A DNA stretch of 64,000 bases from a plasmid (GCF_054482595.1 NZ_JBTHVH010000004.1), one strand, 5' to 3'; shown: positions 3,464 to 63,042, counted from the stretch's first letter. Made by a program: numbers and translations. The notes: generated by a model not told the origin, from the letters alone.

Positions 3464-3488
3464 ATTGATCACCGAAGAAGCGTATCCC

Positions 3489-10348: not shown

Positions 10349-10358
10349 TATGATTTCC

Positions 10359-11318: not shown

Positions 11319-12394
11319 AGTACCTTCTTGATAATGGTTACAGCCCGATACTGGCCGAGGGTTCCCCCCATTTCTGTAACAACTATTCCCTTTTCACGAG
11401 CAAGCCCTACAAGCAAGGCAACGTCCGGGTCGTCAATAGAACGCACAAATACATGGTCCGGTACCCGACGTAATACAGCCCGGGTTGCTTCAGCAATACC
11501 GGGTTTTATACGATTGACGCTGTCCACTTTAAATTCATCGGCCAGGAACGCGATAACGTCGCGACTTGTCTGCCATAAGATCCGGGCTGACTCCGTATTC
11601 CAGCTCAGGGGAGCGAGGGATGACGGGGTTAACTTCTTACGGAAATGAGCGACGGTATCGACAAGCATCCGGCTGCATTCGAATTCACTGAGATGCTCGC
11701 AAACCATGCACCCGTGTAATCCTTCAGAGGACCACACTGACCGGGAGATCAGGCCTGACACCGGCGCACCCATGATGCCAAAAGGAATGAGCCAGTCATC
11801 ATCACTGGCTGCAAGCCAGGAGCAGCCACAGGGATCGGCCAGGACAACCAGTCGCGGCTGCTCAGGATAGCCCGGGCGATCTTTCAGTGCGCGTACAAGC
11901 TCTCCGGTAATTGCGCCTTTACCTGTCCATCCGTCAACAAAGACAATACCGCTGGTACCATGCCGCTCTTCAATGACGTCGAGGGCTGCACCGTCAATTC
12001 CACGATCCCGGATAATGCTGATACCGTAATGCCATGAGGTTTTCCCCATGTCACGCAGGGCCTGGTGCAGCATAACGCCGAGCGGCACGCCAGCCCTGAC
12101 AAGACTGGCCAGTACAATGGGCTCATCACCAAAGCGTTTGGCCAGAGCAATAGCGAGCTGTGTGACTTCTTTTGCAAGTCTCTCTGCGCCCCGATCCAGC
12201 GCCCGGTGAAACAAATCAAGATGCCATTGTGTTGGCGCTGGCTCCTGACTGAGCATGTCCGAATAATGTTTCTTCCCTGACTGAATCAGCTCTTCTTTTT
12301 GCTCAACCGGCGTCATCTCAATGACAACCGGCTTTAGCAGAAATTCCACGTCACCGGGCTGGTATGAGCCGGTAAATGTGTCATGTGGCTGCAT
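11315..12394 (-). CDS. StiP-like protein (family annotated as cysteine protease StiP in ter-linked operons)
   Basis: About 360 aa Cys-containing ORF in the ter-linked operon position; ATG at 12394 with GGAG RBS preferred over the TTG at 12460. Family name is from recall, not motif proof. Confidence 0.5.
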   Translation of the reverse strand: MQPHDTFTGSYQPGDVEFLLKPVVIEMTPVEQKEELIQSGKKHYSDMLSQEPAPTQWHLDLFHRALDRGAERLAKEVTQLAIALAKRFGDEPIVLASLVRAGVPLGVMLHQALRDMGKTSWHYGISIIRDRGIDGAALDVIEERHGTSGIVFVDGWTGKGAITGELVRALKDRPGYPEQPRLVVLADPCGCSWLAASDDDWLIPFGIMGAPVSGLISRSVWSSEGLHGCMVCEHLSEFECSRMLVDTVAHFRKKLTPSSLAPLSWNTESARILWQTSRDVIAFLADEFKVDSVNRIKPGIAEATRAVLRRVPDHVFVRSIDDPDVALLVGLAREKGIVVTEMGGTLGQYRAVTIIKKVL

Positions 12395-12395
12395 T

Positions 12396-13169
12396 TTAAT
12401 TTTCTCCAAAAATTCGCTGTGAAATGGCATCTGCAAACTGACTCTGACGCGGGATGCCAAACCAGCTGCACAGTTTCATAAAACGATGATCGCTCAGGCT
12501 GTCGCCCAGGCCAATTACGGGGAAGACTCCGCGTTCAGCCCGAAGTTTTTCAAGCAGCCATCTGACGGCCAGCCCTTTCTCAACCGGGGTGGGAAGCCAG
12601 GCCACGTTATTACTGTTGCGGTGGATGTAGAAGCCCTCGGTCGGAAACACCGTTTCTATCTCATCTGCAATGGCATTGAGCTCGTCAAGGCGGGTGCTGT
12701 CGCGGTGCTTCATCACCATATAAACCGCCGTTTCACCGTATTCGAAGTTCAGCCTTGCCCAGGCATTGATCCCTTTTGCGTCCATCATTTCAGTGATCAG
12801 ACGCTGCATCGATGTCAGCTTTTCCTGGTAGGGAGCCAGCTGGCCAAGCATATGGGCCTTCCACTCCTCGTCGGGTTTGCCTTCAGGCGTGAGAATGACG
12901 GCCCCGTGCGTGGTGATTGCCCAGGAGTGGAAAGGGATCCGGACGCGGCTGATTTCTTCAGTTCCCCGGGCGGTAACAGGTATGAGTTCAGCCTGCTCCA
13001 GGAGCCAGTCCACCAACATGGACTGTTCTTCCGTCATAAAGCTTCGTGGATTCAGGGTGCGATCAACGGCACCGGTACGGAATGGCTCCAGGGCCAGCTC
13101 GTCCACCATTTTACGACGGGTCTGAAAGAGCGTGTCGTCAAGGTCGCTCAGAACAACGGGTTTATTCAT
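12396..13169 (-). CDS. HAD-superfamily hydrolase (phosphatase)
   Basis: HAD motif I 'VLSDLDDTLF' directly after the start 'MNKPVV' (ATG at 13169). The 112-codon N-extension in the track ORF is rejected because it overlaps the upstream PRTase gene. Confidence 0.75.
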   Translation of the reverse strand: MNKPVVLSDLDDTLFQTRRKMVDELALEPFRTGAVDRTLNPRSFMTEEQSMLVDWLLEQAELIPVTARGTEEISRVRIPFHSWAITTHGAVILTPEGKPDEEWKAHMLGQLAPYQEKLTSMQRLITEMMDAKGINAWARLNFEYGETAVYMVMKHRDSTRLDELNAIADEIETVFPTEGFYIHRNSNNVAWLPTPVEKGLAVRWLLEKLRAERGVFPVIGLGDSLSDHRFMKLCSWFGIPRQSQFADAISQRIFGEN

Positions 13170-25098: not shown

Positions 25099-26424
25099 AT
25101 GAGCCGGAAACAGCAACGTCTGGTAATTTGGATGAACGGCATCAAAGTCGGGTACTGGGAAAAAAGCAAAGGGGTAGACAGCTTAGAATACCTTCCTGAA
25201 TGGGTTGCTGACGAACAGGGAAGGCCGCTGTCATTGTCCCTTCCTTTTACTCCCGGGAACCAGGTCTGGCGTGGAAATGTGGTACGTGACTATTTTGATA
25301 ATTTACTGCCGGACAGCGAAGGCATACGCAGACGTCTGGCAATGCGTTACAAGGCCGATAGCCTGGAGCCTTTTGATCTGCTGACGGAGCTGGGAAAAGA
25401 CTGCGTGGGCGCGATACAGCTGCTTCATGACGGAGATGAACCCACTGATTTATATTCCGTGAAGTATCACCCGCTTACTGAATCAGAAATTGCGGCAACT
25501 TTGCGTAATACCACGGAGACATTGCTACCGGGCAGGCCAGAAGATAACGACGACTTACGTTTATCTATTGCCGGTGCTCAGGAGAAAACAGCCCTACTGT
25601 GGCATGAAGATCGGTGGTGTATGCCGGAGGGTAATACACCAACGACGCATATATTCAAGCTACCGCTCGGACTTGTGGGGAACATGAAAGCCGACATGAG
25701 CTCGTCGGTTGAAAATGAATGGCTCTGCTCGGTACTTCTCGGCCAGTACGGGCTCCCCGTGGCAAGAACGCAGATTGCTCACTTTGAAGATCAGAAAGCG
25801 CTGGTGGTAGAACGTTTTGACCGAAAATGGTCAGGAGACGGACAATGGATCATTCGTTTACCCCAGGAGGATATGTGTCAGGCCCTGGGCGTTTCGCCAT
25901 TACGAAAATATCAGGCGGACGGCGGGCCAGGTATATCGGAAATTATGGAGGTTCTGAGTAATTCAGACCGTGCTGAGCGTGACAAAGCGCAGTTTTTTAT
26001 GACGCAGATAATTTTCTGGATGATGGCCGCAACAGATGGCCACGCTAAAAATTTCAGTATTTCTATTGGGCCACAGGGACGTTATCACCTTACACCAAAC
26101 TATGATGTGTTGTCGGCATGGCCGGTGATCGGTCATGGGAACAATCAGATATCCTGGCAGAAGTGCAAATTGGCGATGGCCGTACGTGGCAGTAGCAACT
26201 ATTACCAGATATATCGAATACAACGACGCCACTGGATCAGGCATGGTGAGATAACCGGCCTGAGTAAACAGCAGACAGAGGCGATGATAGAGGAAATCAT
26301 CGCCAGAACCCCAGGTGTCATTGAACGTGTTAGCGGGCTTCTTCCGGACCAGTTCCCCCAGCAGCTTGCGGAAAGTATTTTTGATGGAATGAGGCAGCAA
26401 TGCAGGCGCCTGGCTGAGAAATGA
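25099..26424 (+). CDS. hipA: HipA-family toxin kinase
   Basis: 441 aa; N-terminal region aligns by eye with E. coli HipA ('VGYW..YLPEWVA..RPLSLSLP..DNLLPDS..FDLL..G.DCVGA'); AGGAGGA RBS. Confidence 0.85.
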   Translation: MSRKQQRLVIWMNGIKVGYWEKSKGVDSLEYLPEWVADEQGRPLSLSLPFTPGNQVWRGNVVRDYFDNLLPDSEGIRRRLAMRYKADSLEPFDLLTELGKDCVGAIQLLHDGDEPTDLYSVKYHPLTESEIAATLRNTTETLLPGRPEDNDDLRLSIAGAQEKTALLWHEDRWCMPEGNTPTTHIFKLPLGLVGNMKADMSSSVENEWLCSVLLGQYGLPVARTQIAHFEDQKALVVERFDRKWSGDGQWIIRLPQEDMCQALGVSPLRKYQADGGPGISEIMEVLSNSDRAERDKAQFFMTQIIFWMMAATDGHAKNFSISIGPQGRYHLTPNYDVLSAWPVIGHGNNQISWQKCKLAMAVRGSSNYYQIYRIQRRHWIRHGEITGLSKQQTEAMIEEIIARTPGVIERVSGLLPDQFPQQLAESIFDGMRQQCRRLAEK

Positions 26425-30729: not shown

Positions 30730-31619
30730 GGCGTGTCGCAAACACTTTTGGAGGCAGCTATCACCCAGCCAAGGCCGGTATTTTCATGCTTTGTTAACCT
30801 TTTGCAGTCCGAAGAGGCGCGCAAGCAAATCATTCTGGTCATTGACGGTCCAGCCGCCTGAAAAGCCAAAGCCCTTCCGCAGCCACAGCATCGCCTCGAA
30901 ACCCGCGATGGTTCGCCGCGCCGTGTTAAAGGATTGGAAACCGCCGATCTTCGGCATGTTCTTCTTCACCCGGAAATGGTCGCTCTCAATCCCCTGCTGG
31001 AGATGTTTGGTCACATAATGCACGGGATCGGGATGGAGAAGCCCATCATCAACCGACGTTTTGATCGTTGACGGGAAGGTGTTGGCCCCGTCCGTCCCAA
31101 TCCTGTTCGGCGACAACAAGGGTTCATCTTTAAGCATCTTTCGGAAGAACCGCTTGGCAGCGTCGAGATCGCGCTTAGCGGTCAGCAGGAAATCCACCGG
31201 ATTGCCATGCTTATCGATGGCTCGGTACAGATAGCGCCATTTGCCGCGGATCTTGACATAGGTCTCATCAATCCGGACCGAGCCGCAATGGGGTCGACGA
31301 AACTGCCGCAGCCGTTTCTCGATGACAGGTGCATAAGCCAATACCCAGCGGTTGATCGTGCTATGATCGACCTCGAAGCCCCGCTCGCGAAACATCTCTT
31401 CCAAGTCACGATAGCTGAGCGGGTAGCGCAAGTACCAGGCAACCGCCTGTACAATCAGCCAGGCCTCGAAATGCCTGCCCTTGAAATCATCCTTCGACTG
31501 GCGCTTCAGCTTTTCGGCAATGGTATTCAAAATCATCGGCTCGCTCCGCAATATCAGGAGCGGCAACTTCTCTCCCCATGGTCAACATCGAGTTAACCTG
31601 AAGAATTTGCGACAAGGCC
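30730..31619 (-). mobile_element. IS6-family insertion sequence, distinct from IS26 (about 890 bp)
   Basis: Imperfect terminal repeats GGCGTGTCGCAAA (left) and GGCCTTGTCGCAAA (right, reverse complement) flanking a 260-aa IS6-type transposase; exact IS name not determined. Confidence 0.7.
30784..31566 (-). CDS. IS6-family transposase (260 aa)
   Basis: Same domain layout as IS26 Tnp ('FKGRHFEAWLIVQAVAWYLRYPLSYRDLEEM...') but divergent in sequence. Confidence 0.8.
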   Translation of the reverse strand: MPLLILRSEPMILNTIAEKLKRQSKDDFKGRHFEAWLIVQAVAWYLRYPLSYRDLEEMFRERGFEVDHSTINRWVLAYAPVIEKRLRQFRRPHCGSVRIDETYVKIRGKWRYLYRAIDKHGNPVDFLLTAKRDLDAAKRFFRKMLKDEPLLSPNRIGTDGANTFPSTIKTSVDDGLLHPDPVHYVTKHLQQGIESDHFRVKKNMPKIGGFQSFNTARRTIAGFEAMLWLRKGFGFSGGWTVNDQNDLLARLFGLQKVNKA

Positions 31620-33121
31620 ATGCGTTCCGCTCCGGAGATGTCTGGCTTACTAGGTCCCGGCGCTATGGCGATCTGAAACACGCACTCGTTCCGGCACAAT
31701 CCATCGCGGAAGGCGGTCGTCTCGCTGTGCCATTGCGGCCGGAGGAATGGCTGGCAGACCGGCAAGCTCGCCTCGACATGCGGTTGCGCGAGCTTGGCCG
31801 TGCCGCTCGCGCAGGCACGATCCCGGGCGGGTCGATTGAAAACGGCGTTCTGCATATCGAGAAACTCGAAGCCGCCGCGCCGACAGGCGCCGAAGATCTG
31901 GTGCTCGATCTCTACAAGCAGATCCCGCCCACGCGCATCACCGATCTCCTGCTGGAGGTGGATGCGGCGACCGGCTTCACCGAAGCGTTCACCCATCTGC
32001 GCACAGGAGCACCCTGCGCTGACCGGATCGGGCTAATGAACGTTATCTTGGCGGAAGGGATCAACCTCGGCTTGCGCAAAATGGCGGATGCGACAAACAC
32101 CCACACCTTCTGGGAATTGATCCGCATTGGACGGTGGCATGTCGAGGGCGAAGCCTATGACCGGGCGCTGGCCATGGTGGTCGAGGCACAGGCAGCGTTA
32201 CCCATGGCCCGGTTCTGGGGCATGGGCACGTCGGCTTCGAGCGACGGACAGTTCTTCGTCGCTACAGAGCAAGGTGAGGCCATGAACCTGGTCAACGCGA
32301 AATATGGCAATACCCCGGGCCTGAAAGCCTATAGCCACGTCTCCGACCAATATGCGCCGTTCGCAACCCAGGTGATTCCTGCAACGGCAAGCGAAGCGCC
32401 TTACATCCTCGATGGCCTGCTGATGAACGATGCTGGACGCCATATCCGCGAGCAGTTCACCGACACGGGCGGCTTCACCGATCACGTCTTTGCCGCATGT
32501 GCCATTCTCGGCTACCGGTTCGCTCCGCGCATCCGCGACCTGCCATCCAAACGGCTCTACGCGTTCAATCCGTCGGCCGCCCCGGCGCACCTGCGAGCGT
32601 TGATCGGCGGAAAGGTCAACCAAGCCATGATCGAGCGCAATTGGCCCGACATCCTGCGCATCGCCGCCACCATTGCTGCCGGGACCGTCGCGCCAAGCCA
32701 GATTCTGCGGAAACTCGCCTCCTATCCGCGGCAGAACGAGCTCGCGACAGCCCTGCGGGAAGTCGGTCGCGTCGAGCGCACCCTGTTCATGATCGACTGG
32801 ATTCTGGATGCCGAACTCCAACGGCGTGCCCAGATCGGGCTCAACAAAGGCGAAGCTCATCATGCGCTGAAGCGGGCAATCAGCTTCCACCGCCGCGGTG
32901 AAATCCGCGACCGTTCCGCCGAAGGCCAGCATTACCGCATCGCCGGCATGAATCTGCTCGCCGCCATCATCATCTTCTGGAACACCATGAAGCTCGGCGA
33001 GGTCGTTGCAAACCAGAAACGCGATGGAAAGCTGCTATCGCCCGATCTCTTGGCCCATGTTTCGCCGCTCGGATGGGAACACATCAATCTCACCGGAGAA
33101 TATCGCTGGCCAAAGCCTTAG
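31620..33121 (+). pseudogene. tnpA: 5'-truncated Tn3-family transposase gene (Tn5393-type tnpA, C-terminal about 500 codons)
   Basis: Homologous by eye to the C-terminal half of the 995-aa TnpA at 50492..53479 ('...SPLGWEHINLTGEYRW'); the track ORF start lies inside the IS6 element so the 5' end is missing. Confidence 0.7.
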
Positions 33122-50314: not shown

Positions 50315-50491
50315 TGATGAACATTTTTTCACCGCATTACCGCATTTAGGTTATTGCATTTAATCTATCGCATATAGGCTATGTCGTTCATTGTGTGCCG
50401 TCACGTTTAGATTATGGTGTCAGGGTATACCCTTATGCGATAACCATTTTTGTTAAAAATAACGCATCGAATAATTTATGAGGAAAACTAT

Positions 50492-53479
50492 ATGGCAAGG
50501 AGGCAGATTCTTTCTCTGTCGGAAAGAGAATCATTACTGGCATTACCGGACGATGAGTTAACGCTGACCCGAATGGCCTATTTCAGTGAGCATGATCTGG
50601 CGCTTATCAGTGCTCACCGTAAACCCGCCAGCCGTTTTGGTTTTGCCGTCCTTCTTTGCTATCTGAAAAATGTCGGCTTTGCCCCGGATAAAAAAATCTC
50701 TCCCTCTGATGCGCTGCTGAAGCATATCGCCAGCAGGCTAAAGCTTACCGGGGATCTCTGGCCTGCTTACCTTTCCGGCCGGGATACGACCCTGCGTGAG
50801 CATTTAACCGAACTGTACCGCTATCTTGGCGTAAAGGCGTTCACCGGCAAAATACAGCAGGACTGTATTACGCACCTGTTATCGATGGCGACGCGCACCG
50901 ATAAAGGCATTCTCCTAGCCGAAGAGTTACTTGTCTATCTCCGGCAGAACAACGTGATAATCCCCGCGATTGATGTCGTGGAGCGTACCTGTGCTGAAGT
51001 CATGGCAGGCGGCGATAAAATCGTATTTCAGACCCTGAATGCCCCGTTAACTCCGGCTCACAGGGATGCCCTGGATCATTTACTTGAGTCATCAGATAAT
51101 CAGCCTTCCAGGCTGACATGGCTTCTGCAACCGCCGGGTAAAATCAATGGTAAGAACGTGCTGCAACATCTTGATCGGCTCAGCAGCATTGAATCGCTGG
51201 CATTACCTGAAGGTATAGATCGTACCATTCACCAGAACCGGTTGCTGAAACTGGCGCGGGAAGGCCGAAAGATGAGTAGCCGGGATTTGACCCGATTTTC
51301 AGCTGCCCGGCGTCATGCGATCCTGGTGTGCGTGCTGGAAGAAGCCAGAGCCACACTGACAGACGAAGTGATTGAGCTGCATGAGCGAATGCTGAATAGT
51401 CTTTTCAGCAAAGCCAAACGAACACAGGCTGAGCGCCTTCAGCAGACCGGAAAGCTGATCCAGTCAAAACTGAGGCAGTACATCGATGTCGGTCAGGCGC
51501 TGTCTGATGCCCGTGATTCCGGTGGCGATCCCTGGCTCGCAATAGAAAACATACTCCCATGGGCTGAATTTGTCGCCAGTCTGGATGAAACACGCCATCT
51601 CGCCAGAAAAAATAATTTTGACCCGCTGCATATTATTACCGAGAAATACAGCACATTACGGAAATATGCCCCACGCATGTTGTCCGCTTTACAGTTAGTC
51701 GCAACCCCGGCAGCGCAACCTCTGGCTGATGCACTGGTTGTGATCAAGGATATGTACCGGAAGCAGTCACGTAAAGTTCCGGCGGCAGCGCCGCTTGAGT
51801 TTGTCCCTGAAAGCTGGCGCAAGGTGGTGATTACACCTGTGGGTATTGACCGGCAGTACTATGAGTTTTGTGCACTCAGCGAGCTTAAGGGGGCGTTGCG
51901 CTCCGGGGATATCTGGGTTAAAGGCTCGCGCCGCTACAAAAATTTTGATGATTACCTCATACCCGAGAAGGACTTTGACAAACTCACACCGGCACTGCCA
52001 CTGCCCGTATCTGCTGATTATCATGAGTACATTACCAGCCGTATGACCCTGCTTCAGTCCAGACTTGAAGAGGTCAATGCCATGGCTGCCCTTGGTGAAC
52101 TGCCCGATGTGGAAATATCCGACAGGGGCGTAAAAGTCTCTCCGCTGGATAACTGCGTTCCGGCGCAGGTTTCACCGCTGGCAGAGCTGGTTTACAGCAT
52201 GCTACCGCGACCTAAAATCACGGAAATTCTCGATGAGGTAAACAGCTGGACGACGTTTACCCGACATTTTTCGCATATAAAAAATGACATTACCCGTCCC
52301 GATACCCGCTTGCTCCTCACCACCATTCTTGCGGATGGCATCAATCTTGGCCTGACCAAAATGGCAGAAGCCTGCCCCGGGAGCACCAAATCATCACTCG
52401 AAGATATTCAGGCATGGTACATCCGTGACGAAACCTATTCAGCCGCTCTTGCAGAGCTGGTAAATGCGCAGGGGAAAAGACCGTTGGCGGCATTTTGGGG
52501 AGACGGAACAACGTCATCATCAGATGGACAAAATTTCAGAACCGGCAGCTCAGGCCGCTACGCAGGGCAGGTTAACCCGAAATATGGGCAAGAGCCTGGA
52601 CGTCAGTTTTATACCCATATTTCGGATCAATACAGCCCGTTTTACACCTGCATAATCAGTCGGGTCAGGGATTCAACCCATGTTCTCGATGGCTTGCTGT
52701 ACCACGAAAGCGACCTGGAAATCAGGGAACATTACACCGATACCGCTGGTTTCACCGATCATGTCTTTGCCCTGATGCATCTGTTGGGATTTGCGTTCTG
52801 TCCGCGAATCAGGGATCTCCACGACAAAAAACTGTTTATCAAAGGGAAAGCAGAGAAATACCCGGCGCTTCAGTCACTGATATCAACGACCAGCCTGAAT
52901 CTGAAAGAGATCGAAATCCACTGGCGTGAAGTGCTGCGTCTGGCAACCTCGATAAAGCAGGGAACCGTGACGGCATCCCTGATGCTGAAAAAGCTTGCCA
53001 GCTATCCCAAGCAAAACGGACTTGCCAAAGCACTGAGAGAAATTGGCCGCATTGAGCGAACCCTGTTTATGCTCGACTGGTTCCGCGACCCGGCTCTGCG
53101 TCGGCGGGTACAGGCGGGGCTGAATAAAGGCGAAGCCCGTAACGCGCTGGCGCGTGCGGTATTTATGCACCGACTGGGAGAAATCAGGGACAGAAAACCG
53201 GAAAATCAGAGCTATCGCGCCAGTGGACTGACGCTGCTGACGGCTGCCATATCCCTGTGGAATACCGTCTATATGGAAAGAGCGGTCGATGCCCTGAAGC
53301 GTAAAGGGGTGAAGATCAACGAGCAACTGCTGTCGCATTTGTCGCCGTTGGGCTGGGAACACATCAATCTGACAGGTGATTATATCTGGAAAAGCAACCG
53401 GATACCGGCTTCTGGTAAGTTTCGTCGGCTAAGACCAGCTAAAGTCGAAAGGTCAAAAAACAGCCTTAACGTACAATAA
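50492..53479 (+). CDS. tnpA: Tn3-family transposase TnpA (995 aa)
   Basis: Full-length; conserved C-terminal '...HYTDTAGFTDHVFALMHLLGF...LSPLGWEHINLTGDYIW'; ATG at 50492 with AGGAAAAC RBS. Confidence 0.85.
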   Translation: MARRQILSLSERESLLALPDDELTLTRMAYFSEHDLALISAHRKPASRFGFAVLLCYLKNVGFAPDKKISPSDALLKHIASRLKLTGDLWPAYLSGRDTTLREHLTELYRYLGVKAFTGKIQQDCITHLLSMATRTDKGILLAEELLVYLRQNNVIIPAIDVVERTCAEVMAGGDKIVFQTLNAPLTPAHRDALDHLLESSDNQPSRLTWLLQPPGKINGKNVLQHLDRLSSIESLALPEGIDRTIHQNRLLKLAREGRKMSSRDLTRFSAARRHAILVCVLEEARATLTDEVIELHERMLNSLFSKAKRTQAERLQQTGKLIQSKLRQYIDVGQALSDARDSGGDPWLAIENILPWAEFVASLDETRHLARKNNFDPLHIITEKYSTLRKYAPRMLSALQLVATPAAQPLADALVVIKDMYRKQSRKVPAAAPLEFVPESWRKVVITPVGIDRQYYEFCALSELKGALRSGDIWVKGSRRYKNFDDYLIPEKDFDKLTPALPLPVSADYHEYITSRMTLLQSRLEEVNAMAALGELPDVEISDRGVKVSPLDNCVPAQVSPLAELVYSMLPRPKITEILDEVNSWTTFTRHFSHIKNDITRPDTRLLLTTILADGINLGLTKMAEACPGSTKSSLEDIQAWYIRDETYSAALAELVNAQGKRPLAAFWGDGTTSSSDGQNFRTGSSGRYAGQVNPKYGQEPGRQFYTHISDQYSPFYTCIISRVRDSTHVLDGLLYHESDLEIREHYTDTAGFTDHVFALMHLLGFAFCPRIRDLHDKKLFIKGKAEKYPALQSLISTTSLNLKEIEIHWREVLRLATSIKQGTVTASLMLKKLASYPKQNGLAKALREIGRIERTLFMLDWFRDPALRRRVQAGLNKGEARNALARAVFMHRLGEIRDRKPENQSYRASGLTLLTAAISLWNTVYMERAVDALKRKGVKINEQLLSHLSPLGWEHINLTGDYIWKSNRIPASGKFRRLRPAKVERSKNSLNVQ

Positions 53480-54768: not shown

Positions 54769-55587
54769 ATGACTCAAAACCAGGGTTCTGAGCCAGTACC
54801 GGCGAGCCGGACAGGGCAGCTCATCAGCGCCCGGGATATGGCCATGCAGAAATTCGAAGAAGGGATGCGGTTAATCTCGGAAGCGTCGGAACTGTGCGGT
54901 CTCTCTCTCTTCACCAGCAGAATTATGCAGCCCAACGCATTTGGTCTTCCGTCGTCACTGGATCGCACCATCGAGGAGGGGCGTAAGGAAATTGACCGTA
55001 AAACGTGGAAAAGGCTCTTTGAAGAAACAGGTATGGACCGGTACTGGAACCATAAGCAAAAAGAAGCCTTTAACGAATCCCTTCGTACGGATCCGCCCGT
55101 CGCTTCCCTGGAGATTGTTAAGGGAACATTACAGCATGCACTGGCTAACAGACGAGACACCCTTGCAGAAGGTTTCGTTGATGTTCTCAACAAGCTTGAC
55201 CGAAGTTTCAAAAGCAATGCCAGGCAATATACAATGCCAAAAAAGCTTGTTCTTCGGGGGATTTTTCCTGGTGTGAACGTGCTGAGGTACAACGGTTTCT
55301 CGCAGGACAATCACTTTTGTTTACGCGACTTTGAGAATATTGTATGCATCTGTTCTGATACTCCAACACCTGCAACCGGCGGTGGGCTGAGTATGGTCGA
55401 CAGGCTGACGGCCATGAGAAATACAGAATTCACAGGCGAGGTCAGTGATGAGAATGGCTGGCGGTGTCGCCTGTTTGAGAATGGAAACGTTCATATTTGC
55501 ATCGACAGTATCTCGCTTCTGAATGCTCTGAACGATCTTATCAGCATATATTTTGCAAACCAGCTTCCGGCCGCAGGAAAAAAATGA
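54769..55587 (+). CDS. Hypothetical protein (about 272 aa)
   Basis: ATG at 54769 with GGAGTG RBS; its stop overlaps the next start (ATGA), indicating translational coupling. Confidence 0.5.
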   Translation: MTQNQGSEPVPASRTGQLISARDMAMQKFEEGMRLISEASELCGLSLFTSRIMQPNAFGLPSSLDRTIEEGRKEIDRKTWKRLFEETGMDRYWNHKQKEAFNESLRTDPPVASLEIVKGTLQHALANRRDTLAEGFVDVLNKLDRSFKSNARQYTMPKKLVLRGIFPGVNVLRYNGFSQDNHFCLRDFENIVCICSDTPTPATGGGLSMVDRLTAMRNTEFTGEVSDENGWRCRLFENGNVHICIDSISLLNALNDLISIYFANQLPAAGKK

Positions 55588-56789
55588 TGATTGAAAATGA
55601 TAAAGAAAAAAGCCTGAACGATGCTACCCCGCCAGAGGTGCAGAATGACATCCGCAGCGAATCCACTGAAAAATCAAAGGAAATGGGTCGTTCAAGGTAC
55701 TCATCTATCGCGATGATCGATTACTTCAATGCAATCGAACGTCTGTGCAAAGAGAAAGAAATTAACCCGGAAAATATCGATCTGAGCTTCAAAGTTCACT
55801 GGCTCAGAAACGCTGTTGGCGGCTCGTTTGCAAGGTCACAGGAGATGTTCGCGGAGTACCAGAAGTATGTTAAAGAGGTTCCTGAAGAGGCCCGTTACCT
55901 GGATATACCCGATGAGGTAAAGGTTGCACTCGGCGATATTATCTCGTACATCACCTGGCACTACCGTAGAAGCTATACCGCAATACAGAATGATAGTGTT
56001 AAAAAAGCTGAAGCACGTAGCATGCAGCTGGAGGAGGAGGTAACGCAGCTGTTACAGCGGCTTGAGCAAAGCGCTACCGATATGGATGAGCTGAAACTTG
56101 AGAATCAGGCACTACAGGGTCGATTAGAGATCCGGGACAGTACCGTCAAGGAGTTAGAAACAAGGCTGAATGTTGCCGAAGCAGAACTCGAAACCTGCCA
56201 TCACCAGTTAGATAGCACACGGCATGAATTGAGCCTCGCACAGCAGTCAAATGACTCACTCTCCCAGCAACTGGCTGAACGTAAAACAGAGATCGCTGGT
56301 CACCTTGAATATCAAAAAAAGCTGAACGAAGAGATCAACACGCAGCGTTCTGATAACGCCGGTCTTTCCAGACAATGCGACCAGTTAAGTCAGACTGTGT
56401 CAGATACAAAGGCAGAGAGGGACAGGTTTGAACAGGAATTGATTGCTGCACAGAACCTTTGTACTGAGCTGAAAAGTGCACTGTCCGGGAAAGAGGGTGA
56501 CCTGGTGGCGGTGAATGCCGAGCTTACTGAACTCCATAAACTAAACGAGTCGCTGAGCGCCGACCTGAATAAAGTAACTTTGGTCAGCCAGGGCTATGAA
56601 GCGGAAGTGGCTGAACAAAGCAATGAACTCAAAACGCTCCAGGCCAAAGTAATGAAGCTGGAAGCTACCCTGGAGGCGGAGAAAACAATCTCAGAATCCC
56701 TAAAAGGCACCATTGATACATTAACTGGTGCAATGGCAGGGGGAGGTACTGGAAAGTCAAAACAGCCGCGTAGCAGAAAAACATCATGA
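55584..56789 (+). CDS. KfrA-like DNA-binding protein with long coiled-coil C-terminal region
   Basis: N-terminal 'HWLRNAVGGSFARSQEMFAEYQ' resembles the KfrA N-domain GGGSF motif; the C-terminal about 250 aa is heptad-like and Glu/Leu/Gln-rich. Confidence 0.5.
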   Translation: MMIENDKEKSLNDATPPEVQNDIRSESTEKSKEMGRSRYSSIAMIDYFNAIERLCKEKEINPENIDLSFKVHWLRNAVGGSFARSQEMFAEYQKYVKEVPEEARYLDIPDEVKVALGDIISYITWHYRRSYTAIQNDSVKKAEARSMQLEEEVTQLLQRLEQSATDMDELKLENQALQGRLEIRDSTVKELETRLNVAEAELETCHHQLDSTRHELSLAQQSNDSLSQQLAERKTEIAGHLEYQKKLNEEINTQRSDNAGLSRQCDQLSQTVSDTKAERDRFEQELIAAQNLCTELKSALSGKEGDLVAVNAELTELHKLNESLSADLNKVTLVSQGYEAEVAEQSNELKTLQAKVMKLEATLEAEKTISESLKGTIDTLTGAMAGGGTGKSKQPRSRKTS

Positions 56790-56852
56790 TAAATGAAGCC
56801 AGGTTGATACACTTCTCTGCATCCCCTGGCACATAAGAACTTCTGCGGACAT

Positions 56853-57056
56853 TCAGCCCGTCCGCAGGAGTTTTCGTCCTTCAGTCAACAAATGCACTAC
56901 CTTTTTTGAGTCTCCACTTTCCAGAGCAGAAAACACGTTACCGATTCTACCAACAGCTTGTATCTGAGTGATAACCCCAGTCTTGTAATCATCTAGGATC
57001 CCTGACAGGAAAGCGTTCAGTTTTGTCTGTTCGCTTAGCGAAAGCATGTAGGACAT
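56853..57056 (-). CDS. Hypothetical small protein (67 aa)
   Basis: ORF at the 3' end of the minus-strand methyltransferase operon. Confidence 0.3.
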   Translation of the reverse strand: MSYMLSLSEQTKLNAFLSGILDDYKTGVITQIQAVGRIGNVFSALESGDSKKVVHLLTEGRKLLRTG

Positions 57057-57068
57057 TTTTTCTCCATT

Positions 57069-58388
57069 TTAAGCAGGTGTGTCAGTTGAAAGAGGTTTGC
57101 GTGATTCTGGAAAATGAGGCAGCACCATAGTTTCAGATGCTGTGGTCGCATCCCAGTGCCACCATCCATAAGGCCCATATTCACGGTTGTAATAATCTTT
57201 TTTGAGTTGCTTTCGGGCCAGATAAGCAGGAGTGGCCATACCAAATACTTCCATCGGGAACGGCTTATCGCTTTTTGTGTCGAGCAGGTAGAAGTCAGGG
57301 AACACCTCACTAATACTCGCATCATAACGCATGGGCTTAACGTACTGCCGGTGCTCTGCATCCAGCTTTTCTGCAACAACCGCCTCATAGGAGGAGTCCA
57401 GAGGTATCCAGTTCTCGCTAACGTGCATCAGCACAATTTGATGAGCTCTTACAGAAGGGCCTCTGCCGGTTACCGCAGCTGGTGACGTCAACGCAAAGAC
57501 AACTATTTTCGCCCCGGATTTCCATGCTGCGTACTCCGATGAAAATCGTTTCTTTACGCTATCCCAATGGACTTCTGAATTGAAAAAAATCAGCGGTAGC
57601 CCCCCAAAATTCCGCAGGGGTAAAAATTTAAGTGGCTTCTCATGCTTTTCAGCATCGTAGCGAGGTAAAACTGACAGGAGCATGAGACGTTTATCACTCA
57701 TCGCCTGTGATGAAAGACGCTGAATTTGCGACTGAGCGACAGGTTGTTTCGGGTCAGGTACACCAATGAATAAATGGTCACCTATGCAGGCTCTGCCGGT
57801 ACGAATTTGTTTAGCGGTTTCAAGCAGACGATACCGTACCAGTGAATCGTTACGTTTCCCTGCCATTTTCGGGTACCAGACATTCAGACCAGACTCTGTC
57901 CACAAAAGACTAAGCAAGCCCAGGAGGGTCATTGAGGCCTGACCTCCTTCTGGTCGCTGAACATGGGGCAGGGGAGGCACTTCTGATTTTTCAGGAGGAT
58001 CTTTCTCTGTCATACCGATACCGAGCCTTACAGCCATATCACCTTCGGTTGTAATCCGGACCACACCACTCGCATATCCTTTCAGGCCGGTATGCCGGGC
58101 ATCAAGGGAGAAGAATACACAGGAAGGATCATGCTCAATGCCCGTGTTAGCGGCTTTGACGAGAATAAAGGCATCACCGTTCGGTAAAGCACGAACATAA
58201 AGTCGCTTTTCTCCTTTTCCACGACATCCGCAGGTGATGACTGATTTTTGACCTGAGGTGTGGTGTGCCTTTTTAAGAGCCGACTGCCACCCTTTAGCAA
58301 ACTCATCCTGCGTTTGAAAGTCAGGTGAATACCTTTTGACGTTTGGATCGTCGTCGTAAGCAATCATCACTGCGAATTTTTGGCTCAT
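57069..58388 (-). CDS. Hypothetical protein (439 aa; possibly DUF1173-like)
   Basis: Long ORF co-oriented with and downstream of the C5-methyltransferase; contains 'CGCRG' and 'PDFYLLDTK' segments; family uncertain. Confidence 0.5.
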   Translation of the reverse strand: MSQKFAVMIAYDDDPNVKRYSPDFQTQDEFAKGWQSALKKAHHTSGQKSVITCGCRGKGEKRLYVRALPNGDAFILVKAANTGIEHDPSCVFFSLDARHTGLKGYASGVVRITTEGDMAVRLGIGMTEKDPPEKSEVPPLPHVQRPEGGQASMTLLGLLSLLWTESGLNVWYPKMAGKRNDSLVRYRLLETAKQIRTGRACIGDHLFIGVPDPKQPVAQSQIQRLSSQAMSDKRLMLLSVLPRYDAEKHEKPLKFLPLRNFGGLPLIFFNSEVHWDSVKKRFSSEYAAWKSGAKIVVFALTSPAAVTGRGPSVRAHQIVLMHVSENWIPLDSSYEAVVAEKLDAEHRQYVKPMRYDASISEVFPDFYLLDTKSDKPFPMEVFGMATPAYLARKQLKKDYYNREYGPYGWWHWDATTASETMVLPHFPESRKPLSTDTPA

Positions 58389-58410
58389 AGTAGTCTCCTA
58401 AACAGGAAGT

Positions 58411-58578
58411 TTAATATCCCAACCAGAGCAACACTTCCTGAGCGTCATACTGTTCCTTTACGCCCATGTCGCTAAAGAATTCTTCGAAATCTGTTTCGGG
58501 AACGCAATGCCTGGACAGTTCTTGTAATGCTCGTTCTTTAGATACCGTCTCACCTTCAGCTGATTCGAAATACGTCAT
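58411..58578 (-). CDS. Hypothetical small acidic protein (55 aa)
   Basis: Not in the ORF track (<60 aa); 'MTYFESAEGETVSKERALQELSRHCVPETDFEEFFSDMGVKEQYDAQEVLLWLGY'; sits between the methyltransferase and the 439-aa gene. Confidence 0.25.
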   Translation of the reverse strand: MTYFESAEGETVSKERALQELSRHCVPETDFEEFFSDMGVKEQYDAQEVLLWLGY

Positions 58579-58638
58579 GGTTGACCTCTGACATTATTAC
58601 AACAATCTTAAGCATTTAAATTGATGAAGGAGCTCAGG

Positions 58639-60108
58639 TCAGCTGACTTCGTCGTAAAACTGCCGCAAGCGCTGGGAGGCTGCAAATTCAATTCGTGACT
58701 TCAGCAGTTTGGCGACGGCCGCAAAGACATCAACGACCACGGAGTTCCCAAACTGTCTGTAAGCCTGTGTATTGGACACAGGGATACGGAAAACACTTTC
58801 CCCGGGTTTATCGAAGCCCATTAGCCTGCTGCATTCACGTGGCGTTAGCATGCGTGGCCGACGGTCCATGTTGTATGTGTTATGGAAATCAGTTTCTCCC
58901 AGTTCATGAGACCAGCCCCGATCAATAAGAATTTCAGATCCGTCTTTCATATAGCGGCTTGAGAGGGTTATGGTGACACTATTAACATTGGAAGGATCTA
59001 CTAGTCCAAAACCAAAACCATTGCCTTTTGCCGCATGTTTCTTTGCATAGTTGTATAAGTACTCCCAGAGTTTAGGGGAGAGGATGTATTTACTATCTAC
59101 GCTCGGATCCAGTAAATCTGAGAGAGAAGGGCGCTTGTCCGGATAAAAGTCTTTAATGTCTCTCAGAGTAAAACCGTCTTTCAGACGTAGGTCGCGGCGA
59201 AAACCAATAAGGACGATACGTTCACGGTGCTGGGGTCGGAAATGACGGCCATCGATGACTTTAGGATCATCCGCGCCCGTGCTTTCGCTGTTTGCGACGT
59301 CGTAGCCAAGCTCATCGAGCGTTTTCATGATGATGTTAAAGGTATTACCCTTATCGTGACTCTTCAGATTTTTTACGTTTTCCAGAACAAAAATTGCAGG
59401 TTGTTTTGCCCGGATGATCCTGGCCACATCAAAGAAGAGCGTACCCTGAGTGTCGCACTCGAAACCGTGTTTGCGACCCATAGAGTTCTTTTTACTGACA
59501 CCGGCGATGCTGAATGGCTGGCATGGAAATCCCGCAAGAAGAACATCATGATCCGGGATAGAGGCATCGATAAATTTGTATGCCTCGTCATCAGTAACCT
59601 CGGGCCGGTTGCTAAGAGTGATGTCACGGATGTCTGAATTGAAGCGGTGCTCGTTCTCATCGCAATACCAGTTCGCCCGGTAAGTACGGCTGGAATAAGT
59701 ATTCCATTCGCTCGTGAAAAGACATTTACCACCGATGGCATCAAATCCGCTTCGCAGTCCACCTATCCCTGCAAACAGATCGATAAAGCTAAAGTGCCTG
59801 TCCTCATAATCAGCAGGTCGTGAAGGTATTAAAGTCTGTAGATAGCGTCCATCTGCGATACTCAGCTCACAATGCTCAGGTATGCATGTAACCTGACGTT
59901 TAAGGGATGCACGGGACCAATTACTGCCATTTTCATCATTTAATACCTGAGCCAGATATTTCAGGTCATAAATGGTCGAAGCTGTTAACAAAGTTTTGTG
60001 GATCAGAGATGGTGTTTTATCCACATCATTCAGGTCTGTCTCAAGATCATGAGTGTAACGTTTCATCCAAACTCTCTCAGGAATAATATCTTTGAGATAG
60101 ATTAACAC
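58639..60108 (-). CDS. DNA (cytosine-5)-methyltransferase
   Basis: C5-MTase motifs '[15 protein letters not shown]' (I), '[11 protein letters not shown]' (IV), 'VLENVKNL' (VI); start is either GTG at 60108 or ATG at 60066. Confidence 0.8.
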
Positions 60109-60277
60109 GCTTAATTTGGATTATTTTTTGGTTCAGGTTCTAAATTTATTGTGATTATTCTGCCTTTAAGTTGCAAAAAGATTGGTTTTAAGCCCGCCCA
60201 TGAAATAATGACTTGTTAAAATACTGCCTGTAAATAGGCTTGTGGATACATGTCTGTACTCAACAAATCAAGGTGAA

Positions 60278-60796
60278 ATGATGTTTTTTTTAACAAAGTT
60301 ACTTTTGCCCATCATGATTGTTGTATTCCCAGTGGCGTCCTGGGGGAACTCAACAACTTTTGAGGCAAAGGTGGTTAAGATTGTTGACGGTGACACCATA
60401 ACTGCGTTGGATGCTCAAAACACAACCATCAAAATACGGATGTATGGTATAGACGCTCCTGAATCTAAACAGGCTTTTGGCCAAAAAGCAAAACAGGCCT
60501 TAACCACAGCTATAGCAACTAAAATCGTTACCGTGATAGACCATGGTACGGATATCTATGGCCGTATGTTAGGTACCATCTGGTTAGATGGATATGATAT
60601 CAATGCCTCTATGGTGGACAGTGGATATGCGTGGGTTTATCGGTTCGAAGATAACGCCATTGTCCCTGGCTATATCAAATATGAATCCGCAGCACAAAAG
60701 GAGGCAAAAGGGTTATGGGCAGACACCAACCCTGTCCCACCATGGCAGTGGAGACAGGCAAACGAAAAGCCCAGAAAGGTGAAAGAGAAGAAATAA
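60278..60796 (+). CDS. Thermonuclease (staphylococcal-nuclease-like) family protein with signal peptide
   Basis: N-terminal hydrophobic signal; 'VVKIVDGDTI...IRMYGIDAPES' SNase-like core; ATG at 60278 with AAGGTGA RBS. Confidence 0.7.
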   Translation: MMFFLTKLLLPIMIVVFPVASWGNSTTFEAKVVKIVDGDTITALDAQNTTIKIRMYGIDAPESKQAFGQKAKQALTTAIATKIVTVIDHGTDIYGRMLGTIWLDGYDINASMVDSGYAWVYRFEDNAIVPGYIKYESAAQKEAKGLWADTNPVPPWQWRQANEKPRKVKEKK

Positions 60797-60798
60797 CC

Positions 60799-61695
60799 AT
60801 GATGAAAGAGCCTCATCCGTTACTTCAGTTGGTACTAAACGATTCCGGTCGTCTAACCATGCCTGTTTATTATAGAGATCAACAGTATTGCCCGACTTGC
60901 CTTACAAAGGTGTTGAAGAGTGAGGATGGAAGTTTGGCGCACCTCGGGGAAATAAATCAAAATACATGTAGACCTTCTATTTCAGTAGTTGTGACAAAAG
61001 CAATTATTGAAATGTTATGTGACGGGGAAAAAATATATGTAAATCCAATACGACACCGAGGCCGGGTGCTGGCACCCTCAGTAATTTTTTCTCCCGACAC
61101 TCACACTTTCAAACCGTTTATAAATACAGACTATCAGCCTGTGGGAGCAAACTGGAAAAGTGAAAAGGGATATAAACTCGGTCTGTTTTATCTCAAAGAT
61201 CGAGCCAACTCTATCAATAAAGAGGAATTTGATTTCATTGCCGTTATAGACCCTGAGGCAATGCAGAAAGAATTTATTTCGGCCTGGTCTGAGGTTGATG
61301 AAAAAAATCCATTGGAAACGCTGAAGCAGATCTTACGATCTAAAAACAACTCTTCTTTATGGGTAAAATGGCCTGGCAAAATTGAGCATGCGCAAAAAGG
61401 AAATTACAACGAAAATTACTGGTTCGATTATCAATCTGATAATCAGGAAGTGAACTGTACGGTCTCTGTTGTAGGTATCGAAGGTAACAGTTCCGGTGAG
61501 ACAATTTATAGATTGCAAACTTTGCTAAAGCGTAAGCTCAATGAATATCAACTGGTTCGGTCTTTAGGGACTATTATGCTTCTTGATAATACCGGGAATA
61601 TGATTCCATCAAACCATCCTTATTTTGAAGTCATCTCAAAAGCATGTATAAATGGAGTGCGTGACTTTGTTCGTCAAAACCCGTGGGTAGTCTGA
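60799..61695 (+). CDS. Hypothetical protein (298 aa) with 'CPTC' motif
   Basis: ATG at 60799, 3 bp after the upstream stop; AT-rich codon usage. Confidence 0.45.
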   Translation: MMKEPHPLLQLVLNDSGRLTMPVYYRDQQYCPTCLTKVLKSEDGSLAHLGEINQNTCRPSISVVVTKAIIEMLCDGEKIYVNPIRHRGRVLAPSVIFSPDTHTFKPFINTDYQPVGANWKSEKGYKLGLFYLKDRANSINKEEFDFIAVIDPEAMQKEFISAWSEVDEKNPLETLKQILRSKNNSSLWVKWPGKIEHAQKGNYNENYWFDYQSDNQEVNCTVSVVGIEGNSSGETIYRLQTLLKRKLNEYQLVRSLGTIMLLDNTGNMIPSNHPYFEVISKACINGVRDFVRQNPWVV

Positions 61696-61742: not shown

Positions 61743-62150
61743 ATGAATGAAAACTCAGTAATCTTAATAAGTTTATTTTGGTTTTTTTTGGGATCGAGTG
61801 TTGTAGCTGGTTTTATGGATGCATCATTATATTGCTGGATTTTTGCAGCCATAAGCGCATTGTTTCTTCTTTCGGTGATACAAACACCAAAGGAGTTAAC
61901 GGTATCTATTAGTCATATGACAAGCAAAACGCTGATCTCAAAGACAGATGATGGATACACATTTAGCATTTCACCTTACGGAGACGGGTACCGCTTATCA
62001 GTCTCGCCTGAAAATCGTCACAATGGTACCCAAAGCTTTGACGGCTGGTTCCCACGTTTTTTTTCCGAACCACAGTATGCCAAATCATCTTTAACTAAAT
62101 TTCTCGGTGAGTCCTTAGTATGGGAAGAAGATTCAAGTAATGCTCTATGA
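61743..62150 (+). CDS. Hypothetical membrane protein (135 aa)
   Basis: ORF with two N-terminal hydrophobic segments. Confidence 0.4.
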   Translation: MNENSVILISLFWFFLGSSVVAGFMDASLYCWIFAAISALFLLSVIQTPKELTVSISHMTSKTLISKTDDGYTFSISPYGDGYRLSVSPENRHNGTQSFDGWFPRFFSEPQYAKSSLTKFLGESLVWEEDSSNAL

Positions 62151-62195
62151 GATTACTTATTATAAATTTTTCTATTAATCTCCATGGAGTGATAT

Positions 62196-62450
62196 ATGAA
62201 TTTGGCCTATTTTTTATTTTTGTCTATAACTGTTATGCTTACGAGCTTTATTATTAAATCACTTGTCGTATTGGTAAAGTTCAAATTACTTCGTGATGAA
62301 CGTCTCGAATATACCAGCAATAAAAATATTGATGAGATGTACGATTTAATGAATGCGAAGGAAGAAATCCTCATAAGGCATCATAAGCAGATGTTGGCAT
62401 TGCATCTTTCACTATTAATATTCGTTCTATTTATTGCTTACATTTACTAA
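62196..62450 (+). CDS. Hypothetical small membrane protein (84 aa)
   Basis: ORF with hydrophobic N- and C-termini. Confidence 0.35.
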   Translation: MNLAYFLFLSITVMLTSFIIKSLVVLVKFKLLRDERLEYTSNKNIDEMYDLMNAKEEILIRHHKQMLALHLSLLIFVLFIAYIY

Positions 62451-62487
62451 AAATAATTTTATTCAACATTTCAACAAAGGGTTTTCA

Positions 62488-62775
62488 ATGGAAAGCTTCG
62501 AAACTGAACAAATGATTCAATATGCTTTCTACATAAATATCGTAATAACGACTGGTTTGGCATGGTTTTGCTTGCGGTCAGGATTGCATTACAATTTTTT
62601 CAGAAAAGCAGAGAGTGCCAGAACAAAAGGGCTGAGTAGTACCTCTACTGAACACGGTCCAGCAATAGTGAGACTAAAGAAGCTACAAGCATTAGTAGAT
62701 TTTATTAGTAACTGTGCTTTTCTAATCCTTTCAATTGGCACAGCTTATATTTTGTATGTTTGGAGCCACAGTTAA
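62488..62775 (+). CDS. Hypothetical small membrane protein (about 95 aa)
   Basis: Internal ATG of ORF 62434..62775; two hydrophobic segments. Confidence 0.3.
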   Translation: MESFETEQMIQYAFYINIVITTGLAWFCLRSGLHYNFFRKAESARTKGLSSTSTEHGPAIVRLKKLQALVDFISNCAFLILSIGTAYILYVWSHS

Positions 62776-62841
62776 CTCATACGAGGTAACTTCGGCAGGT
62801 AACAACTTCTAATGCAGGACTTTAATAACTCTAAGGGATTC

Positions 62842-63042
62842 TACATGAAAAAAGACGATCTAATTACGCGTTGTAAATTACTTAAAGGCGAACGCGATGA
62901 GTCTATCTTTACCATATTAATTGGGATAGTAGTAAAGCTGGGGCTGGTAGGCCTGGCATTCTATCTGTTGCTTGGTTCCACGATTGATTGGTCAAGCTGG
63001 AAAACTTATGCCGCCATGTTGATCTTGGGAGCATTTCTCTAA
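62842..63042 (+). CDS. Hypothetical small membrane protein (about 66 aa)
   Basis: Internal ATG of ORF 62812..63042; C-terminal hydrophobic segment. Confidence 0.3.
   Translation, partial: YMKKDDLITRCKLLKGERDESIFTILIGIVVKLGLVGLAFYLLLGSTIDWSSWKTYAAMLILGAFL

Follow-up and report, generated by a model that had tools for sequence, protein, structure and literature searches.

The window examined here is a stretch of 64,000 nucleotides from a plasmid (GCF_054482595.1 NZ_JBTHVH010000004.1), and its minus strand carries four co-oriented genes headed by a C5-cytosine methyltransferase gene, dcm. This four-gene block is an ordinary part of the IncHI2 plasmid backbone. We consider it probable that it forms a conserved IncHI-type operon, in which an orphan, protective methylase of the Dcm family shares a transcript with independent DNA-processing genes. 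The open reading frames (ORFs) of the block are the following:

60108..58639, minus strand: C5-cytosine methyltransferase ORF (dcm), 489 aa when read from a GTG
58639..60066, minus strand: orphan Dcm-subfamily C5-cytosine methyltransferase, 475 aa when read from an ATG
58578..58411, minus strand: orf55, 55 aa
58388..57069, minus strand: DUF1173 gene, 439 aa
57056..56853, minus strand: orf67, 67 aa

The original prediction had described a methyltransferase, a 439-aa ORF, and two small ORFs in one orientation, and all four were present on the minus strand at these positions. The start of dcm is more likely the ATG at 60066, where the RefSeq annotation of identical plasmids and the homologues begin.

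The methyltransferase scored 841.4 bits against NCBIfam PRK10458 (‘DNA cytosine methylase’, Dcm subfamily; cutoff 710) and 334.6 bits against TIGR00675 (cutoff 100.65), and its best PADLOC model was ‘orphan methyltransferase’ (oMTase) with 680 bits. The canonical motifs I, IV, and VI that had been claimed for it were found as FAGIGG (motif I, residues 98-103, at 59758-59775), GFPCQPFS (motif IV, PCQ; residues 179-186, at 59509-59532), and ENVKNL (motif VI, ENV; residues 229-234, at 59365-59382). Moreover, motifs VIII (QHRERI, residues 279-284), IX (residues 408-418), and X (GNSVVV, residues 440-445) were present. Over about 438 residues the identity was 65% to chromosomal Escherichia coli Dcm and 66% to M.EcoRII. 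The plasmid enzyme shares with these two all ten-motif landmarks, a comparable target-recognition region, and an N-terminal extension of equal length, whereas its N-terminal 90 residues are only 26-29% identical to theirs. The target-recognition region was taken as the variable stretch between motifs VIII and IX, and 117 residues were compared. The identity there was 61.5% to Dcm and 70.9% to M.EcoRII, and the value for Dcm vs. M.EcoRII was 67.5%. Since this region is as close to Dcm and M.EcoRII as those two are to each other, we inferred that the methyltransferase recognizes CCWGG. This site was over-represented in the window, with 168 sites compared to 117.6 ± 9.1 expected, and 168 was reached by none of 100 dinucleotide-preserving shuffles. 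The plasmid does not avoid CCWGG, so protection from EcoRII-type restriction has to come from methylation.

A search of the window by tblastn with the EcoRII endonuclease and with Vsr gave no match, which was in agreement with the earlier statement that no recognizable restriction endonuclease is present, and the four proteins had no hit among the restriction-endonuclease models of PADLOC and NCBIfam. A type II restriction-modification system has its endonuclease gene beside that of the cognate methyltransferase, and a dcm-vsr module has a Vsr-family gene that overlaps or follows dcm; in the window neither was found. The arrangement therefore differs from that of the E. coli chromosome, where vsr overlaps or follows dcm, and from that of pTA13-1, where the EcoRII endonuclease gene is convergent to the methylase gene. 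The plasmid dcm instead heads an operon with orf55, DUF1173, and orf67. By type, the gene can be likened to the orphan dcm of pKAZ3 (PMC11602122), a Dcm-type methylase without cognate endonuclease on a large conjugative resistance plasmid, for which protection from EcoRII is the expected function, although the plasmid family here is IncHI2, MOBH. The removal of one orphan dcm of pKAZ3 raised EcoRII restriction by about 2,700-fold (Dimitriu et al. 2024, PMC11602122), and the chromosomal Dcm of the E. coli host shields conjugating plasmids from EcoRII (PMC11602122). Plasmid establishment genes include orphan methyltransferases as a prominent class (PMC11541004), and IncHI2 plasmids ‘encode at least two DNA methylases’ (PMC5320650). 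Our literature searches on DUF1173, DUF790, and IncHI2/R478 methylases found no functional study of the genes of this block.

These results indicated that the methylase is of a known kind, a Dcm-subfamily enzyme of the plasmid-borne orphan class, and that the finding is real and largely ordinary. The orphan protective methylase, the first of two readings offered in the original prediction, is supported by the position of the gene in the IncHI2/IncHI1 backbone of MOBH conjugative plasmids, its likeness to Dcm and M.EcoRII, the oMTase match, and the lack of a cognate endonuclease. The plasmid Dcm would methylate CCWGG at the inner cytosine, in plasmid DNA as well as in the host chromosome. Plasmid DNA would then leave the donor already protected from EcoRII-type restriction, whatever the dcm status of the donor, and the carrier cell would be less exposed to killing when an EcoRII-like system enters or is lost. 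Such a protective role would match the experiments on chromosomal Dcm and on the orphan dcm of pKAZ3. It would free the transfer of IncHI2 plasmids, important vehicles of mcr, NDM, ESBL, and metal-resistance genes, from the methylation state of the donor and blunt EcoRII-type barriers, as is expected for a large conjugative plasmid.

The 3.6-kb block was at least 99% identical in 1,133 public plasmids from Escherichia, Salmonella, Enterobacter, Klebsiella, and Citrobacter. These plasmids were typed as IncHI2A, MOBH, and MPF_F and were mostly conjugative. Within the window, the block is a backbone island between Tn3-family and IS26-borne resistance regions. The nine-gene neighborhood has the order orf298-SNase (divergent), dcm-orf55-DUF1173, followed by orf67 in some lineages, and coiled-coil-DUF4942 (convergent). 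This synteny was kept in IncHI1 plasmids, whose DUF1173 was 81% identical, as well as in a Photorhabdus plasmid and two more distant metagenomic/enterobacterial lineages, down to 53% DUF1173 identity. All four genes were under purifying selection, with saturated synonymous sites and dN values of 0.12-0.46. Because of this saturation dN/dS was not computable for most pairs; where dS was estimable, the ratio was 0.17 for orf55 and 0.08 for orf67. In the comparison of IncHI2 with IncHI1, DUF1173 evolved more slowly than dcm (dN 0.126 vs. 0.232) and was the best-conserved gene of the operon.

The second reading of the original prediction was a methyltransferase paired with an uncharacterized effector. 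Such a restriction-modification-like pair or guarded toxin would require that DUF1173 cuts unmethylated CCWGG or related DNA and that the co-transcribed Dcm protects the carrier. The two genes are co-oriented and close and have stayed together in IncHI1, IncHI2, and relatives with as little as 53% identity, and the predicted PD-(D/E)XK fold of DUF1173 with its conserved acidic triad, described below, would suit such a role. However, DUF1173 occurred without a methylase outside the IncHI-like group, in Klebsiella, Pseudomonas, Enterobacter (an IncFII/IncR plasmid), Acinetobacter, Pantoea, Mixta, Erwinia, and actinobacterial loci. In the Klebsiella plasmids the SNase gene is followed by DUF1173, with psiA and H-NS nearby and no methyltransferase beside them. 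When the loci outside the IncHI-like group were searched by tblastn with Dcm and by regular expressions for C5- and N-methyltransferase motifs, no methyltransferase was found within about 6 kb of DUF1173 in 24 of 24, the Pseudomonas and Acinetobacter plasmids included. A profile scan of genome contigs gave 21 further species-level DUF1173 loci, and outside the IncHI-like group these likewise had no methyltransferase gene next to DUF1173.

Furthermore, dcm was lost four independent times by insertion of an insertion sequence (IS) or by deletion, with DUF1173 intact. In IncHI2 plasmids it was disrupted by IS1203, IS100, or a 62-bp insertion and orf55 and DUF1173 were intact, and in the Photorhabdus plasmid it was cut to a 145-aa remnant without motif IV beside intact orf55, DUF1173, and orf67. 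The converse case was seen in one plasmid, where the DUF1173 coding sequence was no longer annotated, the region was about 45 bp longer, and dcm was intact. In a restriction-modification system the nuclease is not kept without its methyltransferase, whereas DUF1173 survives the loss of dcm. In addition, an unrelated small gene of phage type stands between dcm and DUF1173, no PADLOC restriction model matched, and the closest nuclease relative of DUF1173, Bax1, is structure-specific and not sequence-specific. The chromosomal Dcm of enterobacterial hosts could hide toxicity in the natural dcm knock-outs, but the lineages without any methylase argue against a masked, CCWGG-dependent toxicity of DUF1173. 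These results indicated that DUF1173 is not the functional partner of the methylase and that the two are not a restriction-modification pair. As a functional pair the second reading found no support, and we regard a guarded cutter of CCWGG as highly improbable. As a separate observation, the contig of the Photorhabdus tasmaniensis plasmid that carries the dcm remnant (L009) encodes, at 10282-12647, a group II intron-type reverse transcriptase/maturase with an HNH domain, which adjoins the conserved block.

DUF1173 is conserved and under purifying selection, and combines a putative zinc motif with a Bax1-like triad. The 439-aa protein, which had been described as a protein of unknown function, belongs to a Pfam family: residues 26-393 matched positions 7-367 of the 386-position Pfam model DUF1173 (PF06666) with E = 5.7e-39. 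By tblastn DUF1173 was found in 3,316 of 72,556 sequenced plasmids (about 4.6%), 2,425 of them conjugative. The only published analysis of the family that we found assigned to it an N-terminal CxC...HxnC zinc motif (CxC...Hx3-5C), a fold at the C-terminus that is related to PD-(D/E)XK, ‘lacking the active-site signature’, and a weak relation to DUF790 by HHsearch (Laganeckas et al. 2011, PMC3045609). Both elements were located in the protein of the window:

58119..58232, minus strand: putative zinc-binding motif of DUF1173, C53-x-C55 ... H86-x3-C90
57129..57491, minus strand: PD-(D/E)XK nuclease-like domain of Bax1/DUF790 type, DUF1173 residues ~300-420

The four zinc-motif residues C53, C55, H86, and C90 were the same in all 32 homologues compared, the most distant of which had 20% identity. 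An AlphaFold2 model of the protein reached a pLDDT of 88.5 and a pTM of 0.88, and the search for a nuclease fold that had been proposed with the original prediction pointed to a PD-(D/E)XK domain of Bax1/DUF790 type in the protein. The fold-level similarity figures were 6.5 for RAP domains, 6.4 each for Vsr and I-Bth0305I, 5.9 for VRR-NUC, 5.7 and 5.0 for Bax1, and 5.3 for Hjc. General searches gave little. The DUF1173 sequence matched no PDB chain under E = 0.5, and Foldseek returned no PDB structure at E ≤ 1e-3, just noise from aminoacyl-tRNA-synthetase OB domains, and only uncharacterized DUF1173 proteins from AFDB50. A full-length profile against the PDB gave a chance match to L22 and no Bax1; the N-terminal domain profile matched nothing in the PDB or Pfam, and the middle-domain profile gave chance matches to L22 or FosB at E ≥ 0.36 and none in Pfam. 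In NCBIfam, PADLOC, and PHROGs there was nothing except a weak match of residues 317-403 to the PADLOC candidate-defense family PDC-S68 (E = 8e-5). In a set of Klebsiella pneumoniae plasmids (H73-H78), the homologue is annotated in two pieces that cover 69% of the query, which suggests a pseudogene in that lineage.

The profile of the C-terminal domain alone had a single family match in the PDB, to the endonuclease Bax1 of archaea (E = 0.036), with three motifs in register (DSsyE/DSTLEE, fPDF/IPDF, and EVFGm..YlarKaeK/EIAGFWTDEYLRKKAEK). DUF790, the Bax1 family, was the only Pfam family besides DUF1173 detected with this domain. Its profile gave E = 0.053 for the protein of the window, E ≤ 0.1 for 13 of 18 homologues, and E ≤ 0.001 for 3 of 18, with 6e-5 as the best value. 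In AfBax1 the metal-binding triad of the nuclease domain is E275, D305, and E318, and the mutation D305A, or D301A in the Sulfolobus enzyme, reduces or abolishes cutting (DuPrez et al. 2020, PMC7293015). The DUF1173 residues E335 (codon 57384-57386), D365 (57294-57296), and E380 (57249-57251) align with the Bax1 positions E274/E275, D305, and E318, and the model places them in helix 333-344, at the start of strand 366-368, and in strand 377-382. Among the 32 homologues, position 335 was E in 29 and D in 3, D365 and E380 were each kept in 28, K351 was invariant in all 32, and R392 and K393 were nearly invariant. The full putative triad was kept in 28 of 32 (26-100% identity). The evidence for a relation to Bax1 is thus convergent and statistically marginal. 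The relation appears to run through one domain, and DUF1173 is not a Bax1 orthologue, because the other domains of Bax1 and its XPB helicase partner are absent. Unlike Bax1, DUF1173 has no detectable N-terminal and Cas2-like domains and no XPB-like helicase neighbor; it is bacterial, is found on mobile elements, and has its own zinc-motif N-terminal domain and an uncharacterized middle domain.

DUF1173 is most likely a zinc-binding, DNA-structure-specific endonuclease. It is possible, if doubtful, that it is an active enzyme of Bax1 type by which conjugative plasmids and integrative elements process their own DNA, for example at single-strand/double-strand junctions or stalled forks, during entry, replication, or damage tolerance beside umuDC. 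The substrates would probably be branched or single-strand/double-strand junction intermediates of replication, repair, or conjugative entry, and would probably not be defined by methylation. Together with orf55 and orf67, DUF1173 would be independent cargo on the shared transcript, and none of the three would be a restriction-modification or toxin-guard partner of Dcm.

Several points weigh against this view of the operon and of its nuclease-like member. The HMMER alignment sets E335 opposite Bax1 E274, one residue from the cited E275. D365 and E380 are lost in four distant DUF1173 members, and the family lacks the lysine of the classic (D/E)xK motif (EVF), with Phe or Trp at the +2 position; Laganeckas et al. 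2011 (PMC3045609) judged it to be without a conserved active site. No XPB-like helicase was found among the annotated or conserved neighbors of DUF1173. Leading-region anti-defense islands of conjugative plasmids occupy the first tens of genes on the leading side of oriT and are transcribed from the T-strand (Samuel et al. 2024). In pSTM6-275, about 36 kb with resistance insertions and Tra1 genes separate dcm (near 155 kb) from mobI/mobH (192-197 kb), so that an early-entry (leading-region) role of the locus is tentative. On the side of the methylase, the CCWGG target has similarity as its sole basis, and co-transcription of the four genes is presumed. E. coli and Salmonella hosts usually carry a chromosomal Dcm, so that the natural dcm knock-outs do not exclude a CCWGG-dependent activity of DUF1173 there, and the added value of the plasmid dcm in such hosts is unclear.

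The missing lysine, the four deviating members, and the lack of a conserved PD-(D/E)XK signature reported in 2011 could also mean that DUF1173 has retained a nuclease fold without catalytic activity and serves in DNA binding or as a scaffold, as was proposed for the family at that time, and some sources label homologues as predicted regulators of CopG/Arc/MetJ type. However, Pfam finds no CopG/Arc/MetJ domain, and the triad kept in most homologues aligns with the experimentally supported triad of Bax1, which itself has no +2 lysine (EIAG). The invariant K351 and the near-invariant R392 and K393 could provide the positive charge that the lysine would have brought. The conclusion of 2011 thus requires refinement, as most of the family, this protein included, appears to keep the Bax1-type triad, which is lost only in a distant subgroup. 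We therefore consider an inactive protein fairly unlikely.

A further explanation likens the locus to a dcm-vsr module. DUF1173 could act as a Vsr analogue that nicks the T:G mismatches arising from deamination of 5-methylcytosine at CCWGG, and so limit the mutational cost of Dcm in hosts without Vsr. Like Vsr, DUF1173 has a PD-(D/E)XK-derived fold without the classic lysine, a putative zinc site, and a gene downstream of dcm. But it shows no sequence similarity to Vsr, has other catalytic residues, and is three times larger, and its gene is separated from dcm by another gene. The likeness is at the level of the fold only (11% identity), the Z score is no better than for other PD-(D/E)XK proteins, and the sequence profiles point to Bax1/DUF790. 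When the sequences were compared, the active-site histidines of Vsr had no counterpart in the EVFG motif. Moreover, most DUF1173 genes are on elements without Dcm, and DUF1173 is kept in the Photorhabdus plasmid in which dcm is deleted. A Vsr-like role is thus very unlikely.

DUF1173 could also be a stand-alone defense or exclusion nuclease of mobile elements, directed for example at modified phage DNA or competing plasmids, with the adjacency to dcm incidental. It is a single-gene protein with a predicted nuclease fold, is concentrated on plasmids and probable integrative elements, shows the weak PDC-S68 match, and has accessory genes nearby such as the thermonuclease gene and, in relatives, genes for phospholipase-D-family and HNH proteins. 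However, no established defense model matched, and the recurrent neighbors are maintenance and repair genes (parAB, umuDC, H-NS, resolvase) and not defense islands. Among these neighbors, umuDC was found at 7 loci from three plasmid groups, thermonuclease at 6, resolvase at 5, and H-NS at 4. The high conservation between IncHI1 and IncHI2 (dN 0.126) also lacks the rapid turnover that is typical of defense genes. A defense function is therefore unlikely. The loci with DUF1173 beside umuDC, which encodes the translesion polymerase V, belong to three unrelated groups of plasmids (L016, L017, L041-L045), one being of IncP type from Pseudomonas, one of IncFII/IncR type from Enterobacter, and one from Pantoea/Mixta, and in L017 a replication gene and parA lie between the two.

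If the tentative assignment of DUF1173 as an active junction nuclease is true, it would be a missing enzyme for plasmid establishment or repair, and an undescribed DNA-processing step would exist in about 4.6% of sequenced plasmids. IncHI plasmids would then have built such a nuclease into one operon with an orphan Dcm and a small protein of phage-early type.

The two small ORFs are real genes on the sequence evidence, because they are conserved in relatives and combine saturated synonymous sites with low dN. The product of orf55 matched phrog_25588 (E = 1.8e-24) and no Pfam family. The gene was found in 1,467 plasmids and was conserved in IncHI1 plasmids, IncHI-like relatives, and phages. Homologues with 50-55% identity are gp01 of Pectobacterium phage PhiM1, the first gene past the terminal repeat, and gp02 of Escherichia phage PGT2, the second annotated gene. 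Both phages belong to the Autographiviridae (T7-like), in which these homologues lie in the early-injected region, and neither dcm nor DUF1173 is present in them. Another homologue stands alone in plasmid pQBR57. The residues T2, H24, G39, Y44, L50, W52, G54, and Y55 are invariant. The idea that orf55 encodes the controller (C) protein for restriction-modification was rejected, as there was no helix-turn-helix match and the gene stands by itself both among the early genes of phages and in pQBR57. It follows that orf55 is an independent module of the phage-early-gene type; an anti-defense or host-takeover role is a guess, and the gene is a cheap candidate for anti-defense screening. The product of orf67 was 70% identical in the Photorhabdus plasmid and 59% identical in IncHI1, and had no match in Pfam, PHROG, NCBIfam, or PADLOC. 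The gene is confined to the closest relatives, and unrelated genes take its place in more distant ones. In the gene tables distributed with PLSDB, which are incomplete, it is unannotated in identical plasmids.

The intergenic gaps along dcm-orf55-DUF1173-orf67 are 60, 22, and 12 bp, and a ribosome-binding site of GGAG/GAGG type precedes every downstream gene; that of orf67 is a GGAG, 12 bp past the DUF1173 stop codon. The candidate signals at the ends of the block are as follows:

56867..56843, minus strand: terminator-like hairpin with a 9-bp stem, 6 G-C pairs, and a weak T tail
60067..60280: divergent intergenic region between the thermonuclease gene and dcm, with a candidate promoter by consensus scan

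The hairpin overlaps the stop codon of orf67 and lies between convergent operons, and 7 terminator-like sites were counted in the region compared to 3.4 expected. A candidate sigma-70-like promoter of the operon has its -35/-10 elements at 60234..60205 on the minus strand. The promoter scan was not above the shuffled background (6 promoter-like sites vs. 5.4 expected), and this candidate is not significant alone. The close spacing, the ribosome-binding site of each gene, and the hairpin at the end make it plausible that the four genes are co-transcribed as one operon. A scan of the locus with Rfam gave a chance hammerhead match only, a weak hit to Hammerhead_HH9 at 54782-54846 (minus strand) inside the DUF4942 coding region, which with 22 bits (gathering score 52; E = 0.075) is almost certainly due to chance.

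The genes on both sides of the block were also inspected. The DUF4942 protein of 272 aa and a coiled-coil protein of 401 aa, whose ORFs overlap, are encoded at 54769-56789 on the plus strand, convergent with the dcm operon, and this pair shows synteny throughout the IncHI-like relatives. The supplement of Samuel et al. 2024 lists DUF4942 families (F-plasmid YdiA type) as enriched in leading regions. On the other side, divergent from dcm, the thermonuclease (SNase) with a hydrophobic, signal-like N-terminus and, 3 bp downstream, a conserved 298-aa ORF occupy 60281-61695 (plus strand). The SNase gene also adjoins DUF1173 in Klebsiella plasmids and stands near it in Acinetobacter plasmids without dcm. 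Beyond it, four small ORFs of 76-135 aa with strongly hydrophobic segments lie at 61743-63042 (plus strand), where the AT content of the window is highest (GC 0.37-0.40).

A full-length Tn3-family transposase gene at 50450-53479 (plus strand) immediately precedes the backbone island, and related IncHI2 plasmids carry the pco copper-resistance operon at this junction. A second, fragmentary Tn3-family transposase gene lies at 31481-33121 (plus strand). In more distant IncHI-like relatives (L010-L013) a protein kinase gene is found beside the SNase block, with a PP2C phosphatase gene next to it in L010. The window itself contains, at 1964-5129 (minus strand), an ORF of 517 aa that resembles Ser/Thr kinases, with weak matches to kinase domains, next to an ORF of 546 aa, as well as a HipA-like toxin ORF at 25099-26424 (plus strand) that matched the HipA N-terminal domain with E = 7e-27.

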